Shown here: positions 1 to 8,528 of the stretch, one piece after another
Numbering within the stretch: the stretch's first letter is position 1
How the letters are laid out: the number at the start of each line of letters is the position of its first letter
From: a virus
Taxonomy: Duplodnaviria; Heunggongvirae; Uroviricota; Caudoviricetes
Length of the DNA: 36,695 nt
Direction: 5' to 3' (one strand)
IMG/VR virus record: IMGVR_UViG_2851938318_000015
Position numbers and translations under genes: made by a program
The notes under the pieces: model-generated
Told to the model about the DNA's origin: nothing
Database searches by the model: none
Seen by the model: the letters and a program-made list of their open reading frames with translations, nothing else

Positions 1-708
1 ATGTGGGTCAATAAGTATATTGACGATTGCACTGATGAGGATTTAAACGATCGTGACTTTATTGCATCAGTTGTTGACCGGGCTATTTTTCATTTCGCGA
101 TTAATAGTATATGTAATCCTGGGGATAATAAAGATGCAATGCCCATTGAACAATGTACTTTTGATGTAGAAAATAAGAATGACCTTCCCTCCACGGTTCA
201 GCTATTTTATGAGGAATCTAAGGATAATGAACCTTTAGCGAATATACATTTTCAAGCAATAGGTTCTGGTTTTTTAACGTTTGTTAATGCCTGCCAGGAA
301 CATGATGACAACAGCTTAAAATTATTTGCTTCGCTGTTAATTTCACTTTCATATTCTAGTGCCTACGCAGATTTATCAGAAACAGTGTATATTAATGAAA
401 ATAATGAGAGCTACCTGAAAGCTCAGTTTGAAAAATTATCTCAACGTGATATGAAGAAGTACCTGGGAGAGATGAAGCGTCTGGCTGATGGGGGAGAAAT
501 GAATTTTGATGGCTATCTGGATAAGATGTCACATCTGGTGAATGAAGGAACGCTCGATCCTGATATTTTAAGCAAAATGCGAGATGCTGCACCACAATTA
601 ATTAGCTTCGCGAAGTCGTTTGACCCAACCTCAAAGGAAGAGATTAAAATACTTACAGACACTTCTAAATTAATTTATGATTTGTTCGGGGTTAAATCGG
701 AGAAATAA
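1..708 (+). CDS. Hypothetical protein, low-GC; possibly the host gene upstream of dusA (yjbM-like)
   Basis: Complete 235-aa ORF starting at base 1, followed by a hairpin plus T-run terminator at 750-778. Lies directly upstream of a dusA 5' fragment; I recall yjbM as the 235-aa K-12 neighbour of dusA, but the identity is from memory of gene order and length, not sequence recognition. Confidence 0.4.
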   Translation: MWVNKYIDDCTDEDLNDRDFIASVVDRAIFHFAINSICNPGDNKDAMPIEQCTFDVENKNDLPSTVQLFYEESKDNEPLANIHFQAIGSGFLTFVNACQEHDDNSLKLFASLLISLSYSSAYADLSETVYINENNESYLKAQFEKLSQRDMKKYLGEMKRLADGGEMNFDGYLDKMSHLVNEGTLDPDILSKMRDAAPQLISFAKSFDPTSKEEIKILTDTSKLIYDLFGVKSEK

Positions 709-749
709 TATGTGAAGTTCTTCGATAGTATGGAAGGCATTATATAAAA

Positions 750-778
750 GGACCCAATATTTATTGGGTTCTTTTTTC
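750..778 (+). terminator. Intrinsic terminator after the first ORF
   Basis: Inverted repeat acccaata / tattgggt followed by a T-run. Confidence 0.5.
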
Positions 779-1070
779 TCTATCAATGCTATTAGCAGGG
801 AGATATATCACCAGAGTTTAATGTGTGATTTTTTATTTATCGTCGAACCTGGATTGTTTATCATTGGCCTTAACAAAGTTAACGGCTAATAAGATTATTT
901 CCATCACTTCGTGAGAGCTTCATGCCTTGAGAGGATCTCAATTTTCTTTTGCAATGAGACAGGCGCTTCCTGTTGTTATGGTATAGTACCCCGCTATTGA
1001 GCCTCCTGAATAGTGATGCTGAATAACATAACCCCATGATATATCGATAAAATAATCTCTACATTTGAAA

Positions 1071-1193
1071 ATGCACGGTAATTCTGAAATGCAAAAAATC
1101 AACCAAACCAGCGCAATGCCTGAAAAAACTGACGTTCACTGGAGTGGTCGGTTTAGCGTTGCACCAATGCTCGATAGGATGTACCGTTTTTGA
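1071..1193 (+). pseudogene. dusA: 5' fragment of tRNA-dihydrouridine synthase A (dusA), interrupted after about 32 codons
   Basis: Short ORF translating MHGNSEMQKINQTSAMPEKTDVHWSGRFSVAPMLD, then RMYRF and a stop. The SVAPMLD stretch matches the conserved DusA N-terminal motif (SVAPMLDWTDRH...); similarity is lost after the LD codons at about 1166. Confidence 0.55.
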
Positions 1194-1318
1194 AAAACAA
1201 ATAGTTATATACTTTGTGGGAGCCTATTGGGAACCCGGCGTTTTCATTTCAAGGTGTAATCCATACGCGGCTTAAGAATGAGATATAATGCGACTTTTAG
1301 TGTTCCGCTTGAGAGGCC

Positions 1319-1855
1319 ATGATGCTTACCCTGGACGAGATAGGTCAATCAGTACGTAACAATATCCAGTTGATTATTGATCATGTCGGCTTACCTCTTG
1401 CTGTTGGTCCGCTCAGTGATGATGATTACAAGATTCTGTGTGGTGGCTATGGTGAGCTTGAATGGGACTATGCGTTAAGTACCTATGGCAACTCCAGAGA
1501 AAAGTATGAGTTCTGCATAAAACTTGTTCAGCAAGGTCGGGTTCAGGGAATACCATCAGGAGCAGCAATTTGTGTTTATGGGGTTGAAGAAAACATCTTT
1601 CGTATCCATATGATCGAAAGGTTTTCTAGAGAAGATGAATCTCACCCATTGAAAGGGCGCATGGTTTTACTCACTCTTATGAGTGCTTTTATATTTTGTA
1701 AAGCTGTTGAATGTAAAGTTGTCCACATTGTAGAGCCAGTACCAGAACTGGTGCAGTATTACGAGTCTTTTGGTTTCCGCATGGAACAGTGCGGTTATGT
1801 GATGTCGGCAGTCATTGATGAGCTGCAGGATATCTTTCTTAAATTTGCTCAGTAG
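1319..1855 (+). CDS. Hypothetical protein, 178 aa; possible GNAT-like acyltransferase fold (weak)
   Basis: Clean ORF just inside the putative junction. The segments HPLKGRMVLLTLMSAF and YYESFGF loosely resemble GNAT motifs A and B; no family assigned with confidence. Confidence 0.35.
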   Translation: MMLTLDEIGQSVRNNIQLIIDHVGLPLAVGPLSDDDYKILCGGYGELEWDYALSTYGNSREKYEFCIKLVQQGRVQGIPSGAAICVYGVEENIFRIHMIERFSREDESHPLKGRMVLLTLMSAFIFCKAVECKVVHIVEPVPELVQYYESFGFRMEQCGYVMSAVIDELQDIFLKFAQ

Positions 1856-2051
1856 GTATAGACGAGAAGGGTCTACAAATTGTAGGATACCCGTCCAGAT
1901 TACCTTAAAGGTACATCTATGGCAGTCGTTTTGTGCTTAAACTACTAAGAAACGATGTCACCAATCGACATGATCGATTGGCATAAGTTAGCGAAACAAG
2001 CTAGCTTTAAAGAAAGGGTTAGAGACGCCTTTACTGTCTCGGGAGTTTTCT

Positions 2052-2225
2052 ATGAAAGATCAAAAAGCAACCAAGCCACAGGTTAAGTTCGACACAATGA
2101 AAGCATTCGCAGGTATGGGTGCTGCTGTTGAAGTTCTGATGAAGGCTGCTCCTAATGCGTTCACTCACGCTACTGTCTCTGGTAAAGAGCAGCAGGGTAA
2201 GCTTCGTCGTCGCAAAGCAGCATGA
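2052..2225 (+). CDS. Small hypothetical protein, 57 aa, basic C-terminus
   Basis: ATG at 2052 preceded by GGGAG about 8 nt upstream; translates MKDQKATKPQVKFDTMKAFAGMGAAVEVLMKAAPNAFTHATVSGKEQQGKLRRRKAA; followed by a strong terminator. Below the 60-aa cutoff of the supplied ORF track. Confidence 0.35.
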   Translation: MKDQKATKPQVKFDTMKAFAGMGAAVEVLMKAAPNAFTHATVSGKEQQGKLRRRKAA

Positions 2226-2243
2226 TCATAGCTGGTGCTTTTT

Positions 2244-2271
2244 GAAAACCCGCCTTCAGGCGGGTTTTTTC
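2244..2271. terminator. Bidirectional intrinsic terminator between convergent genes
   Basis: cccgcc ttcag ggcggg hairpin flanked by an A-run upstream and a T-run downstream; sits between the + strand small ORF and the - strand PrtN-like gene. Confidence 0.6.
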
Positions 2272-2272
2272 T

Positions 2273-2533
2273 TTAGTGATGTTCTTTGTCCTTCTGTTTG
2301 ACTGTTCTGACCTGTTCCCACTCGATACGTCCTTCTTCTCGCCTTTTGTCTATGTATTCCGCAAGATCTTGAATATTGATGCAACGTTTTGCTTTTTGTG
2401 ATGTGCCGATGCGATATGTTGGAACGGGCAACTTACAAGCGTTTGCTTTTGCTTCTGCCGTGGCTGGACTCATACCAAAGTACTTTTGGCTAACTGCTGA
2501 GAGTTCAATGTTTGGGGTATTGAATTCAGCCAT
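2273..2533 (-). CDS. Phage DNA-binding protein, PrtN / excisionase-like family
   Basis: 86-aa ORF (MAEFNTPNIELSAVSQKYFGMSPATAEAKANACKLPVPTYRIGTSQKAKR...) resembling the small PrtN/excisionase-like HTH proteins of lambdoid prophages; its start codon lies 7 bp from the IS end. Confidence 0.5.
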   Translation of the reverse strand: MAEFNTPNIELSAVSQKYFGMSPATAEAKANACKLPVPTYRIGTSQKAKRCINIQDLAEYIDKRREEGRIEWEQVRTVKQKDKEHH

Positions 2534-2539
2534 CAGTAT

Positions 2540-3310
2540 GAACCGCCCCGGGTTTCCTGGAGAGTGTTTTATCTGTGAACTCAGGCTGCCAGATCATCGT
2601 TTCCGATGGAAGCATAATAAGCTTTTTCTGCTTCTGCCGGAGGAGTATGGCCCAGCCTTCCCAGCAATCGTCGATTGTTATACCAGTCCACCCACGTTAG
2701 TGTGGCCAGTTCCACTTCTGCACGGTTTTTCCAGCTCTTACGGTGTATTACCTCCGCTTTGTAAAGACCATTGATGCTCTCAGCCATCGCGTTGTCATAC
2801 GAGTCGCCTGTACTCCCTGTTGATGCCAGTAATCCGGCTTCTTTTAGTCGCTCCGTATAGGCCAGTGACACATACTGAGAGCCTTTATCGCTGTGATGGA
2901 TGGTGCCAGACGGACGACGGGCCCACAACGCCTGCTCCAGCGCATCCAGCACGAATGTCGTTTCCATAGACGATGAGACCCGCCACCCCACGATGTATCC
3001 GGCAAACACATCAATGATAAACGCCACATAGACGAAGCCCTGCCATGTGCTGACGTAAGTAAAATCAGCCACCCACAGCTGGTCAGGTCGTTCTGCCACG
3101 AACTGACGGTTTACGCGGTCGCCTGCGGCAACGGCTTTCCGGCTGATGGTCGTACGGACCTTTTTACCCCGGAGAACACCGGCAAGTCCCATAACCGCCA
3201 TGAGACGTGCCACTGTACATCTGGCCACCCTGATTCCTTCCCGTAACAACTGACGCCAGACTTTACGCACACCGTACACCTGATGATTTTCATCGTATAC
3301 GCGCTGTATC
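2540..3310 (-). mobile_element. Truncated IS3-family insertion sequence (IS629/IS1203-like), 3' portion only
   Basis: Terminal inverted repeat TGAACCGCCCCGGGTTTCCTGGAGAGTGTTTTATCTGTGAACTCA beginning at 2540; orfB-like reading frame on the minus strand; similarity ends near 3310 with no orfA. Element name recalled from memory. Confidence 0.7.
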
Positions 3311-3327
3311 ACACACGCCGGGCGCAA
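2581..3327 (-). pseudogene. IS3-family transposase OrfB (integrase core), 5'-truncated, no orfA upstream
   Basis: 248-aa ORF containing ...QLWVADFTYVSTWQGFVYVAFIIDVFAGYIVGW...HHSDKGSQYVS...YDNAMAES..., typical of IS3-family OrfB (DDE domain). Confidence 0.75.
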
Positions 3328-3389
3328 TCCGTCTGTGCTGGCACTGCGATAACCAGCTGCGCGATCAGTTCACGGAACGGCTGGAATCA

Positions 3390-3977
3390 ATGGCAACGGA
3401 TAACTGTACCCGCTGGGTGTTGTCTGTTGTGCGTCGGGATCTCGGTTTTGATGACAGTCACGTTGTGACAATGCCGGAACTGTGCTGGTGGCTGATTCGT
3501 AATGACCTGGCGGATGCCTTACCGGAAAGTGCAGCCCGTAAGGCACTGAGATTACCGAAGCCTGTTGTGCCGTCTGTCACCCGGGAAAGTGACCTTGTGC
3601 CTTCGGTTCCTGCCACCAGCATCATCCAGGATAAAGCGAAAAAGGTGCTGGCGCTGAAAGTGGATCCGGAGTCGCCGGAGTCTTTTATGTTACGCCCAAA
3701 ACGTCGCCGCTGGGTTAATGAAAAGTACACGCGCTGGGTTAAGACACAGCCGTGTGCATGTTGTGGAAAGCCCGCTGATGATCCCCACCACCTGATAGGC
3801 CACGGTCAGTGTGGAATGGGTACAAAAGCGCATGACCTTTTTGTGTTGCCTTTGTGCAGAAAGCATCACGACGAGCTGCATGCGGATACCGTGGCATTTG
3901 AAGAGAAGTATGGCTCTCAGCTGGAGCTGATATTTCGTTTTATCGATCGTGCGCTGGCAATTGGCGTACTGGCGTAA
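3390..3977 (+). pseudogene. DUF968-family phage protein (YdfU-like), N-terminally truncated at the IS junction
   Basis: Cysteine/histidine-rich C-terminus (CACCGKPADDPHHLIGHG...LCRKHHDELH) as in nin-region DUF968 proteins; the reading frame begins right at the IS fragment boundary. Confidence 0.55.
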
Positions 3978-3990
3978 GTGGAGAACGAGC

Positions 3991-4743
3991 ATGAACCTTG
4001 AAGCCTTACCGAAATATTACTCCCCGAAATCTCCAAAACTGAGCGATGACGCACCGGCGACAGGCTCTGGTGGTTTAACAATTACGGATGTGATGGCTGC
4101 GCAGGGGATGGTGCAGTCAAAAGCACCGCTTGGGTTTGCTTTATTCCTGGCAAAAGTTGGTGTTCAGGATCCTCAGTTTGCGATTGAAGGTCTGCTCAAT
4201 TACGCGATGGCACTGGATAACCCGACATTGAATAAATTGAGTGAAGAAACCCGGCTACAGATCATTCCTTACCTTGTGAATTTTGCCTTTGCTGATTATT
4301 CCAGGTCTGCGGCAAGTAAGGCTCGCTGTGAGCATTGTGCTGGTACTGGATTTCATAATGTATTGCGCGAGGTGGTGAAACACTCCAGAAGCGGGGAATC
4401 TGTTATTAAGGAAGAGTGGGTGAAGGAACTATGTCAGCATTGTCATGGTAAGGGAGAAGTCAGCACAGCATGCAGAGGGTGCAAGGGTAAAGGTATTGTC
4501 CTGGATGAAAAAAGAACCCGGCTTCATGGCACGCCTGTTTATAAGGTTTGTGGGCGTTGCAATGGAAACCGGTTTAGCCGTTTACCAACCACACTGGCGC
4601 GGCTTCATGTCCAGAAGCTGGTACCAGACCTGACGGATTATCAGTGGTACAAAGGATATGCAGATGTCATTGATAAACTGGTTACAAAGTGCTGGCAGGA
4701 AGAAGCATATGCAGAGATACAATTGAGAAAGGTGACAAGATAA
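3991..4743 (+). CDS. Q: Late-gene antitermination protein Q (phage 82/Qin-type)
   Basis: MNLEALPKYYSPKSPKLSDDAPATG... N-terminus and a Cys-rich zinc-binding region (CEHCAGTG...CQHCHGKG...CRGCKGKG); placed upstream of tRNAs and the lysis genes. Confidence 0.75.
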   Translation: MNLEALPKYYSPKSPKLSDDAPATGSGGLTITDVMAAQGMVQSKAPLGFALFLAKVGVQDPQFAIEGLLNYAMALDNPTLNKLSEETRLQIIPYLVNFAFADYSRSAASKARCEHCAGTGFHNVLREVVKHSRSGESVIKEEWVKELCQHCHGKGEVSTACRGCKGKGIVLDEKRTRLHGTPVYKVCGRCNGNRFSRLPTTLARLHVQKLVPDLTDYQWYKGYADVIDKLVTKCWQEEAYAEIQLRKVTR

Positions 4744-5089: not shown

Positions 5090-5205
5090 GTAGCGTCAAA
5101 GCAGCAATGTCGCTGGGGCGTCGTGCAATTGGCGTTGAGCTGGAGACTGAACGTTTTGAGCAGACGGTCAGGGAAGTTCAGGATTTAGTCAGTCAGAACG
5201 GATGA
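5090..5205 (+). pseudogene. Possible C-terminal remnant of a DNA methyltransferase
   Basis: Short frame translating ...SLGRRAIGVELETERFEQTVREVQDLVSQNG, resembling the conserved C-terminal motif of N6/N4 DNA methylases; no upstream body present. Confidence 0.3.
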
Positions 5206-5245: not shown

Positions 5246-5321
5246 GGCCCTTTAGCTCAGTGGTGAGAGCGAGCGACTCATAATCGCCAGGTCGCTGGTT
5301 CAAATCCAGCAAGGGCCACCA
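5246..5321 (+). tRNA. ileZ: tRNA with CAU anticodon (ileX/ileZ-like tRNA-Ile2, or Met)
   Basis: Manual cloverleaf fold: acceptor ggccctt/aagggcc, D-stem gctc/gagc, anticodon loop ctCATaa, T-loop ttcaaat, 3' CCA. Close to my recollection of E. coli ileX. Confidence 0.8.
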
Positions 5322-5330
5322 TATCACATA

Positions 5331-5407
5331 CCGCCATTAGCTCATCGGGATAGAGCGTCAGCCTTCGAAGCTGGCTGTGCGGGGTTCAAGTCCCCGATGG
5401 CGGTCCA
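5331..5407 (+). tRNA. tRNA-Arg, anticodon read as UCG
   Basis: Cloverleaf: acceptor ccgccat/atggcgg, anticodon stem tcagc/gctgg, loop ctTCGaa, T-loop ttcaagt, CCA. Anticodon read by hand. Confidence 0.7.
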
Positions 5408-5420
5408 TTATCAGCATCAT

Positions 5421-5497
5421 GCGTTGTTAGCTCAGCCGGACAGAGCAATTGCCTTCTAAGCAATCGGTCACTGGTTCGAATCCAGTACAACGCGCCA
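5421..5497 (+). tRNA. tRNA-Arg, anticodon UCU (decodes rare AGA)
   Basis: Cloverleaf: acceptor gcgttgt/acaacgc, anticodon stem attgc/gcaat, loop ctTCTaa, T-loop ttcgaat, CCA. Confidence 0.75.
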
Positions 5498-8321: not shown

Positions 8322-8528
8322 ATGGAAAAAATCACAACAGGTGTGTCATACACCACGTCAGCGGTGGGGACGGGATACTGGTTACTGCAGCTGCTGGACA
8401 AAGTCTCTCCGTCCCAGTGGGTGGCAATAGGTGTGCTGGGAAGTCTGCTGTTTGGCCTGCTGACGTATCTGACAAATCTTTATTTCAAGATTAAAGAAGA
8501 TAAGCGTAAGGCTGCGAGAGGTGAATAA
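8322..8528 (+). CDS. S: Holin (class II, phage 21 S-like)
   Basis: 68 aa with two hydrophobic segments and a charged C-terminus ([13 protein letters not shown]); stop overlaps the endolysin start. Confidence 0.8.

Follow-up and report, generated by a model that had tools for sequence, protein, structure and literature searches.

Two deletions of different age beside a truncated IS629 in a dusA-integrated lambdoid prophage of Escherichia coli O111

Introduction

The cryptic lambdoid prophages DLP12, Rac and Qin of Escherichia coli K-12 are fixed and non-inducible; they have lost their early regions and keep Q-like and lysis genes together with some cargo. For enterohaemorrhagic E. coli (EHEC), PMC9943667 cites structural polymorphisms of the insertion sequence (IS) IS629 and deletions promoted by the IS-excision enhancer, IEE (Ooka 2009, Kusumoto 2011). 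IS629-driven structural polymorphism and prophage decay in this group are already well documented. Here we describe a 36,695-nucleotide stretch of DNA (the window; IMG/VR record IMGVR_UViG_2851938318_000015), identical to E. coli O111 strain RM9131 (NZ_CP028429.1, ~4,829,798-4,866,492). The window is a lambdoid prophage integrated in dusA, and in it a truncated IS629 has phage DNA joined directly to both of its ends.

Compared with DLP12, Rac and Qin, this prophage keeps an almost complete late region and type III secretion system (T3SS) effectors, and its decay can be traced strain by strain. It resembles the IS629/IEE deletions of EHEC in that flanking DNA was lost with an endpoint exactly at an IS629 terminus, in a prophage of an EHEC lineage for which PMC9943667 reports IEE. 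It differs in that the reported IEE events excise the IS, whereas here a stump incapable of transposition is kept. No new kind of element or mechanism is revealed; the one mildly notable feature is that rearrangements anchored on a one-ended IS stump can be followed in series from strain to strain.

On balance, stepwise IS629-associated erosion seems the best account of the locus. The later of two deletions would most likely have arisen through a second, directly oriented IS629 and homologous recombination across the 772 bp that it shares with the stump.

The IS629 stump

The features on which the argument turns are, in window coordinates:

2273-2538, minus strand: 5'-truncated excisionase-like gene (xis) of the PrtN family (Pfam PyocinActivator, E=1.2e-19)
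2538/2539, no strand: deletion-2 junction, phage DNA flush with the terminal TG of the right terminal inverted repeat (IRR) of IS629
2539-3310, minus strand: IS629/IS1203 remnant of 772 bp, identical at 772/772 nt to nt 539-1310 of the 1,310-bp element
3310/3311, no strand: deletion-1 junction, IS629 nt 539 joined bluntly to DUF968 nt 324
3311-3977, plus strand: DUF968 remnant, 667 of 990 nt, which full-length genes match from their nt 324

As a reference for the remnant we used the annotated full copy of IS629 in phage VT1-Sakai of E. coli O157:H7 Sakai (AP000400, locus L003), which is annotated as follows:

L003 1201-2510: whole element, 1,310 bp
L003 1201-1225: IRR
L003 1243-2133: orfB
L003 2130-2456: orfA
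L003 2486-2510: left terminal inverted repeat (IRL)

The identity over 772 nt holds for copies in many phage records as well as for this annotated one. The remnant, or stump, amounts to 59% of IS629 and consists of the IRR end and 730 of the 891 nt of orfB. Its 25-bp IRR (2539-2563) is intact, is the same as in the Sakai copy, and is the sole terminal inverted repeat left, whereas orfB is reduced to codons 55-296 (2581-3309). The rve/DDE domain of the Sakai OrfB is preserved (Pfam E=7e-28, profile positions 2-101 of 102), and HTH_21 was also detected. Unlike the Sakai element, the stump lacks IRL, orfA, the overlap region with its frameshift site, and OrfB residues 1-54, the protein starting at residue 55 of 296; therefore it can neither encode a transposase nor give rise to a two-ended circle intermediate. 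Compared with a functional IS3-family element, it has the nucleotide identity and the DDE domain and lacks both the pair of inverted repeats and the programmed -1 frameshift between orfA and orfB. It is an IS629 derivative and not a functional member of the family. Self-BLAST revealed no second piece of IS629 elsewhere in the window, and RefSeq annotates both the IS remnant and the DUF968 remnant as partial.

A preliminary description of this DNA had recognized a truncated IS3-family element with a terminal inverted repeat and orfB, without orfA or the left inverted repeat, and abutting a DUF968 gene that lacks its 5' end. The comparison bears out each of these points. The start given there (2540) is one nucleotide late, and the stated retention of the 3' two-thirds of the element was about right.

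Deletion 1, the IS/DUF968 junction

The DUF968 gene has lost its first 323 nt (108 codons), the full-length gene measuring 990 nt (329 aa) in CD45, phage Lys8385Vzw and O121. What is left is 100% identical to the O121:H19 copy, 99.7% to that of CD45 and 99.3% to that of Lys8385Vzw. The Pfam DUF968 domain (PF06147) is whole: the match has E=1.7e-80, scores 269.5 bits where the gathering cut-off is 27.8, and spans profile positions 2-171 of 171. All of this DUF968/HNH-like domain lies in a 195-aa open reading frame (ORF) that starts at an internal ATG at 3390.

An intact counterpart is found in CD45 (NZ_CP182220), which has the same dusA site and left attachment site (attL), two small ORFs, DUF968, Q and tRNAs as the window, and also shares the xis, early-left operon and immunity region of the dusA prophage, all at 97-99.7% identity. 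It differs from the window in having no IS, the whole Rha-to-KilA-N block and the full 990-nt DUF968 gene. Between ymfL and Q, CD45 carries a Rha-family gene (the IS target), a small ORF, a gene with an HTH domain, PerC, an N6-adenine methyltransferase, a LexA-like gene, RusA, KilA-N and full DUF968. Alignment of the window to CD45 places deletion 1 at L018 18000-23144, where the phage lost 5,145 bp and the IS 538 bp. The genes lost run from the Rha-family gene through KilA-N, together with the 5' end of DUF968, and make up the replication/nin-like block. The alignments to full-length IS629 and to related prophages that had been recommended earlier thereby fix the endpoints at IS nt 539, DUF968 nt 324 and L018 18000-23144.

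The full IS reads CTGTATC followed by TCTCTC, the intact phage sequence AATGCG followed by ACACAC, and the window CTGTATC followed by ACACAC. Microhomology is 0 nt when the junction is set against the full IS and three intact DUF968 references (Lys8385Vzw, CD45 and O121). A microhomology-mediated join of the IEE type was considered and found unsupported, with 0 nt shared. Neither endpoint of deletion 1 is an IS terminus, the one on the IS side being internal to the element.

Of 5,426 complete E. coli genomes, 41 share this junction, and the ones listed or looked at individually are O111-type; it was found in no phage record. Its recurrence in 41 independent complete genomes means that it is neither a chance join nor a misassembly, the latter having been the reservation attached to it at the outset. 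Deletion 1 is thus old and common to the O111 lineage, in whose ancestor it arose. Any tie to IS activity is circumstantial: because neither endpoint is an IS terminus and microhomology is zero, the label 'IS-mediated' that the preliminary description gave to this junction is unproven.

Deletion 2, the xis/IRR junction

The O111:H- reference strain 11128 (NC_013364, 4.957-5.001 Mb) has a prophage at the same dusA site with the same stump/DUF968 junction, frameshifted integrase and portal genes and effector cargo, and is 99.99-100% identical to the window outside deletion 2. Unlike the window, it retains a further 7,254 bp beside the stump. Its early region comprises a complete xis (PrtN family), a 3'-5' exonuclease gene, DUF551 fragments, a methyltransferase gene, yfdR, yfdQ, yfdP, an XRE/cI-like repressor gene, a cro-like HTH gene and ymfL. 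In 11128 and ~34 other genomes this early-left/immunity region is whole beside the same stump. In the 11128-type state the stump IRR adjoins the first 62 nt of the gene after ymfL, and in all inspected copies without later rearrangement it lies at one identical nucleotide of the Rha-family gene.

Window positions 1-2538 correspond to L002 5209-7746 in the 11128 comparison, and 2539 onward to L002 15001 onward; the breakpoint on the xis side is L002 7746/7747. The missing 7,254 bp begin 16 nt inside xis, reach right up to the IS, and held the start of xis, the exonuclease gene, yfdP, yfdQ, yfdR, the cI-like repressor gene, the cro-like gene and ymfL. With its first 16 nt lost, xis goes from 282 nt in 11128 to 261 nt in RM9131, where an internal ATG at 2533 gives an 86-aa ORF. 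An adjacent deletion anchored on an IS terminus is what is found at 2538/2539 and not at 3310/3311.

A 281-nt probe across the xis/IRR junction has a contiguous match only in RM9131. Among the matches listed, no place in RM9131 holds at least 77% of the 8.4-kb early region; the segment was therefore lost, not moved. Together, the two deletions have replaced ~12.4 kb of early DNA by the 772-bp stump. A GTTCA pentamer located 10 nt inside the deleted side near the xis breakpoint was considered as a surrogate IS end and rejected, since its position and orientation are wrong for a pseudo-end.

IRR-anchored rearrangements in other O111 strains

The stump region is rearranged in several other O111 strains. 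Positions below refer to L002:

7-15 45A: left endpoint 14599, inside ymfL; 401 bp deleted, flush with IRR
E2863: left endpoint 8212, inside the exonuclease gene; 6,788 bp deleted, flush with IRR
1056-1: left endpoint 7956, inside the exonuclease gene; 7,044 bp deleted, flush with IRR
2013C-4361: left endpoint 7780, just upstream of xis; 7,220 bp deleted, flush with IRR
RM9131 (window): left endpoint 7746, inside xis; 7,254 bp deleted, flush with IRR
2009C-3675: full IS629 at 14721-14723, direct orientation; 3-bp duplication GAG, 277 bp from the stump
FWSEC0005: full IS629 at 8361, direct orientation; further rearranged
UTME-6: full IS629 at ~8046, inverted
2015C-3101: full IS629 at ~10222, inverted

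For strain 1074-2, annotation suggests the same deletion as in 1056-1.

Of nine independent IS629 events (insertions or deletion endpoints) in the 7.25-kb early region, six lie in a 615-bp xis/exonuclease segment (L002 7746-8361), with a nominal binomial P of ~2.5e-5 for an interval that was chosen post hoc. This clustering speaks for endpoints at IS629 target sites and against random breakage, and suggests either that IS629 has a local hot spot for its targets or that loss of the entire left operon was selected. It does not separate recombination between IS copies from a one-ended route.

In UTAK-8 (NZ_CP168991.1, ~4.682 and ~5.022 Mb; L017, L022) the penicillin G acylase gene, pga, is split: its 3' part adjoins the stump IRR, and its 5' part adjoins the IRL of a full IS629, the IRR side of which bears the ancestral Rha'/ymfL flank. 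A 3-bp duplication, AGT, is divided between the two inversion junctions, the reciprocal one having the full-length IS. This arrangement is proof of homologous recombination between the stump and a full IS629 that had inserted in pga, with inversion of ~340 kb. The 3-bp duplications of IS629 in other O111 strains are thus GAG in 2009C-3675, in the same prophage region, and AGT in UTAK-8, in chromosomal pga.

In OkiPb01689 (L010, 19000-20700) the prophage has a full inverted IS629 at a distance of 3 bp from the ancestral junction, with a truncated lysozyme gene fused to it, and has lost the stump, DUF968 remnant, Q, tRNAs, esterase gene and holin gene. A match running 25 nt past the insertion site had made this strain a candidate for an IS-free ancestor; it was rejected on account of the full inverted IS629 and the different, larger deletion.

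In FWSEC0005 (L009, L008) the stump IRR adjoins a truncated aphA, ~3.8 Mb in record coordinates from the left arm of the prophage. That arm ends in a full IS629 beside unrelated DNA, a complex multi-step IS629-mediated rearrangement.

It is conceivable, if doubtful, that the one-ended stump remains a rearrangement hot spot, its IRR being the anchor of no fewer than five independent nested deletions, as well as two large inversions, across the 41 O111 genomes, and that some of the deletions come from a trans-acting transposase, with or without IEE, working on the single IS end. The nested deletions form a small, clean data set on the erosion of prophages by IS629, and O111 could be subtyped by means of the strain-specific xis/IRR junction and of the IS/DUF968 junction found across the lineage.

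Proposed history and mechanism

The stepwise history that we favour begins with a full IS629 inserting 62 nt into the Rha-family gene after ymfL, with IRR toward ymfL, as the comparison of relatives shows. The ancestor of the O111 lineage then lost IS nt 1-538 (IRL, orfA and the start of orfB) and ~5.1 kb of phage DNA in one deletion, which the comparison also shows. The Rha-family gene, the HTH replication-type gene, PerC, the methyltransferase, the LexA-like gene, RusA, KilA-N and nt 1-323 of DUF968 went in this step, leaving a non-autonomous 772-bp stump with one intact end. Subsequently, the RM9131 line shed the 7,254 bp between the outer terminus of the stump IRR and the interior of xis. 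The loss itself is apparent from 11128; for its route, we infer as most likely that one of the many full IS629 copies of RM9131 landed in xis in the same orientation as the stump, and that recombination between the copies removed the intervening DNA and left the stump alone. The predicted intermediate is a full direct copy in xis, with the IRL end of IS629 plus GTAAAAACAAGGTGTTCAT and the duplication GTA. The outcome would be a prophage that persists as a fixed carrier of lysis, structural and T3SS effector genes.

Several observations support recombination as the route of deletion 2. Strain 2009C-3675 is an intermediate of the predicted type at another position, with its direct full IS629 277 bp from the stump. 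Two full copies survive in the early region at 5-7 kb from a stump that still adjoins that region, in UTME-6 and 2015C-3101, and both are inverted, as would be expected if direct copies are soon resolved. Recombination of the stump with a full IS629 is demonstrated in UTAK-8, and the stump itself lacks the second end that copy-out-paste-in transposition needs. At least 40 places in RM9131 match the IS-containing query, and recombination partners are therefore abundant.

Other points weigh against this history. The xis/IRR junction is known from a single assembly, and a full IS629 at the xis position of RM9131 was found in no genome, the intermediate being a predicted one. Recombination and one-ended attack by a transposase leave identical junctions, which sequence alone cannot tell apart. 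Direct events outnumber inverted ones by 7:2 (two extant copies and five deletions against two), somewhat more skewed than random orientation, which leaves room for a second mechanism. As for the first deletion, with no endpoint at an IS terminus and no microhomology, its circumstantial tie to the IS also counts here.

The same two-step history could instead have ended in one-ended action on the stump IRR, which would account for deletion 2 and for the other IRR-anchored deletions; we regard this as a real possibility, if an unlikely one. An IS629 transposase supplied in trans would cleave the IRR and make a 'sloppy' transfer to a nearby non-cognate site, to be resolved into a deletion, possibly with the aid of IEE. 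The deletion-2 junction is exactly flush with the IS terminus, and five distinct left endpoints share one anchor, as such a route would produce. IS629/IEE-dependent deletions next to the IS, from a few nt to >40 kb, are reported, as is the occurrence of IEE in O111:H8 (PMC9943667); in Sakai the iee gene is ECs_1305. A sloppy-attack model has been described (bioRxiv 10.1101/2023.06.07.543989). That same study notes, however, that sloppy attack by itself gives no deletion of the donor and should regenerate it, the reported IEE events remove the IS whereas the stump is kept, and the stump is without the second end required for copy-out-paste-in transposition. Although the six of nine events in the post hoc 615-bp interval suggest sites chosen by a transposase, this clustering would arise equally well if full copies inserted in the ordinary way and then recombined, and insertions of this kind are directly seen. 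Between IEE excision and recombination with a second IS629 copy, the evidence on deletion 2 favours the latter. If some of the deletions do come from a trans-acting transposase, the stump would be a natural system in which a single inverted repeat suffices for progressive, directional erosion of a prophage.

It is very improbable that the stump/DUF968/Q module was imported by recombination from another lambdoid prophage already carrying the truncated IS, with no deletion 1 in situ. EHEC lambdoid prophages are mosaic, and DUF968-Q-tRNA modules of 98-100% identity are present in many other phages and prophages, but the IS/DUF968 junction was seen in the 41 O111-lineage genomes only and was found in none of the phage records. 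In addition, the constant position of the stump IRR in the Rha-family gene of every inspected copy without later rearrangement speaks against import, as does the collinear intact version in CD45 at the same site.

An assembly artefact at the xis/IRR junction, through collapse at a repeated IS, deserves hardly any weight: although the junction is in one assembly and IS629 is highly repeated in RM9131, the genome is closed, the matches listed place the early region nowhere else in it (at the 77% level given above), and four other closed O111 genomes have analogous nested deletions with nearby endpoints.

The single IS-mediated deletion from the att side to DUF968 that was originally proposed, with the IS/DUF968 junction as its scar, is close to untenable. 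Within the window alone, it is true, 3310/3311 is the only junction that looks plainly broken, and the genes from the repressor through the nin-like block are all gone. However, ~34 O111 genomes of the 11128-type state pair the identical junction with a complete xis-to-ymfL block and so refute it, RM9131 alone has the distinct breakpoint between xis and IRR, and the integrase of related strains is at the other prophage end.

Consequences for the prophage

The first gene beyond the DUF968 remnant is that of the late antiterminator:

3991-4743, plus strand: late-gene antiterminator Q, intact (Pfam Antiterm, E=6.7e-53; annotated by PGAP as antitermination protein)

Deletion 2 removed the region expected to hold pR along with the cro-like gene. 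A scan by consensus only found no sigma-70-like site on the plus strand between a terminator-like hairpin at 2244-2269 and Q. Q is probably not driven in cis. With the early transcription unit gone and no such site, the late genes would therefore need a cryptic promoter or a compatible Q in trans.

Much of what an inducible lambdoid prophage requires is broken or missing: the integrase and portal genes are frameshifted and xis is truncated, and there is no repressor gene, cro-like gene or replication block. The prophage should be neither inducible nor excisable, being predicted to be unable to repress, replicate or excise; excision would fail because xis is truncated and the integrase was already frameshifted. 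The deletions would explain why a prophage carrying EspW, EspM2 and an NleG-like effector stays locked in the RM9131 chromosome.

Q and the lysis, capsid and tail genes are present, and the T3SS effector cargo is kept at the right end of the prophage:

33385-34443, minus strand: EspW
34522-35172, minus strand: DUF1076/NleG-like gene
35355-35945, plus strand: EspM2

The effector region (32787-35945) also holds a partial DUF1076 gene.

Between attL and Q there are two small unassigned ORFs, the 5'-truncated PrtN-type excisionase gene, the IS remnant and the DUF968 remnant, and nothing else. The integrase lies 62 bp past the right end of the window, adjoining intact dusA at the opposite end of the prophage, and is annotated as frameshifted in both RM9131 and 11128. 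RefSeq further annotates the portal gene as frameshifted and an HNH gene as partial.

The preliminary description was only partly right, because there are two deletions, the integrase is elsewhere and IS-mediation of the IS/DUF968 junction is unproven. It correctly saw a defective prophage, and its view that the early region had been lost with involvement of an IS stands; the deletions, however, differ in age, and the junction it singled out explains only ~5.1 kb. The absence of integrase, repressor, N, O/P and nin genes between att and Q is accurate as to content, but the integrase was never in that interval. Likewise, the late operon and effector cargo said to be retained are there as genes, whereas the implied dependence on Q meets a Q that probably lacks transcription in cis.

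Prophage ends and minor features

The left end of the window lies inside a frameshifted DUF2713 gene downstream of zur, and the right end at a DinI-like gene. The features between the left end and xis are:

1071-1175, plus strand: native 5' fragment of dusA, displaced, 35 codons (annotated by PGAP as partial tRNA-dihydrouridine synthase), marking attL
1319-1855, plus strand: ORF of 178 aa and unknown function between attL and xis, present in every prophage copy inspected
2052-2225, plus strand: ORF of 57 aa, followed by the strong terminator-like hairpin at 2244-2269

attL maps to ~1167-1175, and the prophage starts right after the displaced dusA fragment, which shares 82% identity with the 5' end that the phage supplies to the intact dusA on the far side of the prophage. 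The two ORFs have no match in Pfam or NCBIfam. They look like cargo ('moron') genes, to judge from their predicted products and setting. Both lie on the strand opposite to the early-left operon and are kept in CD45 and in all inspected O111 copies.

The frameshifted portal gene is split into two ORFs, 15604-16968 and 16965-17942. Inside the gene, at 17130-17560, is a 162-bp tandem repeat of 2.7 copies with 97% matches, and the same repeat is found in 11128. Downstream of Q, a 114-nt DNA methylase fragment (~5092-5205) precedes a cluster of three tRNA genes at 5246-5497, assigned by ARAGORN to Met(CAT), Arg(TCG) and Arg(TCT), the first being tRNA-Ile in RefSeq.

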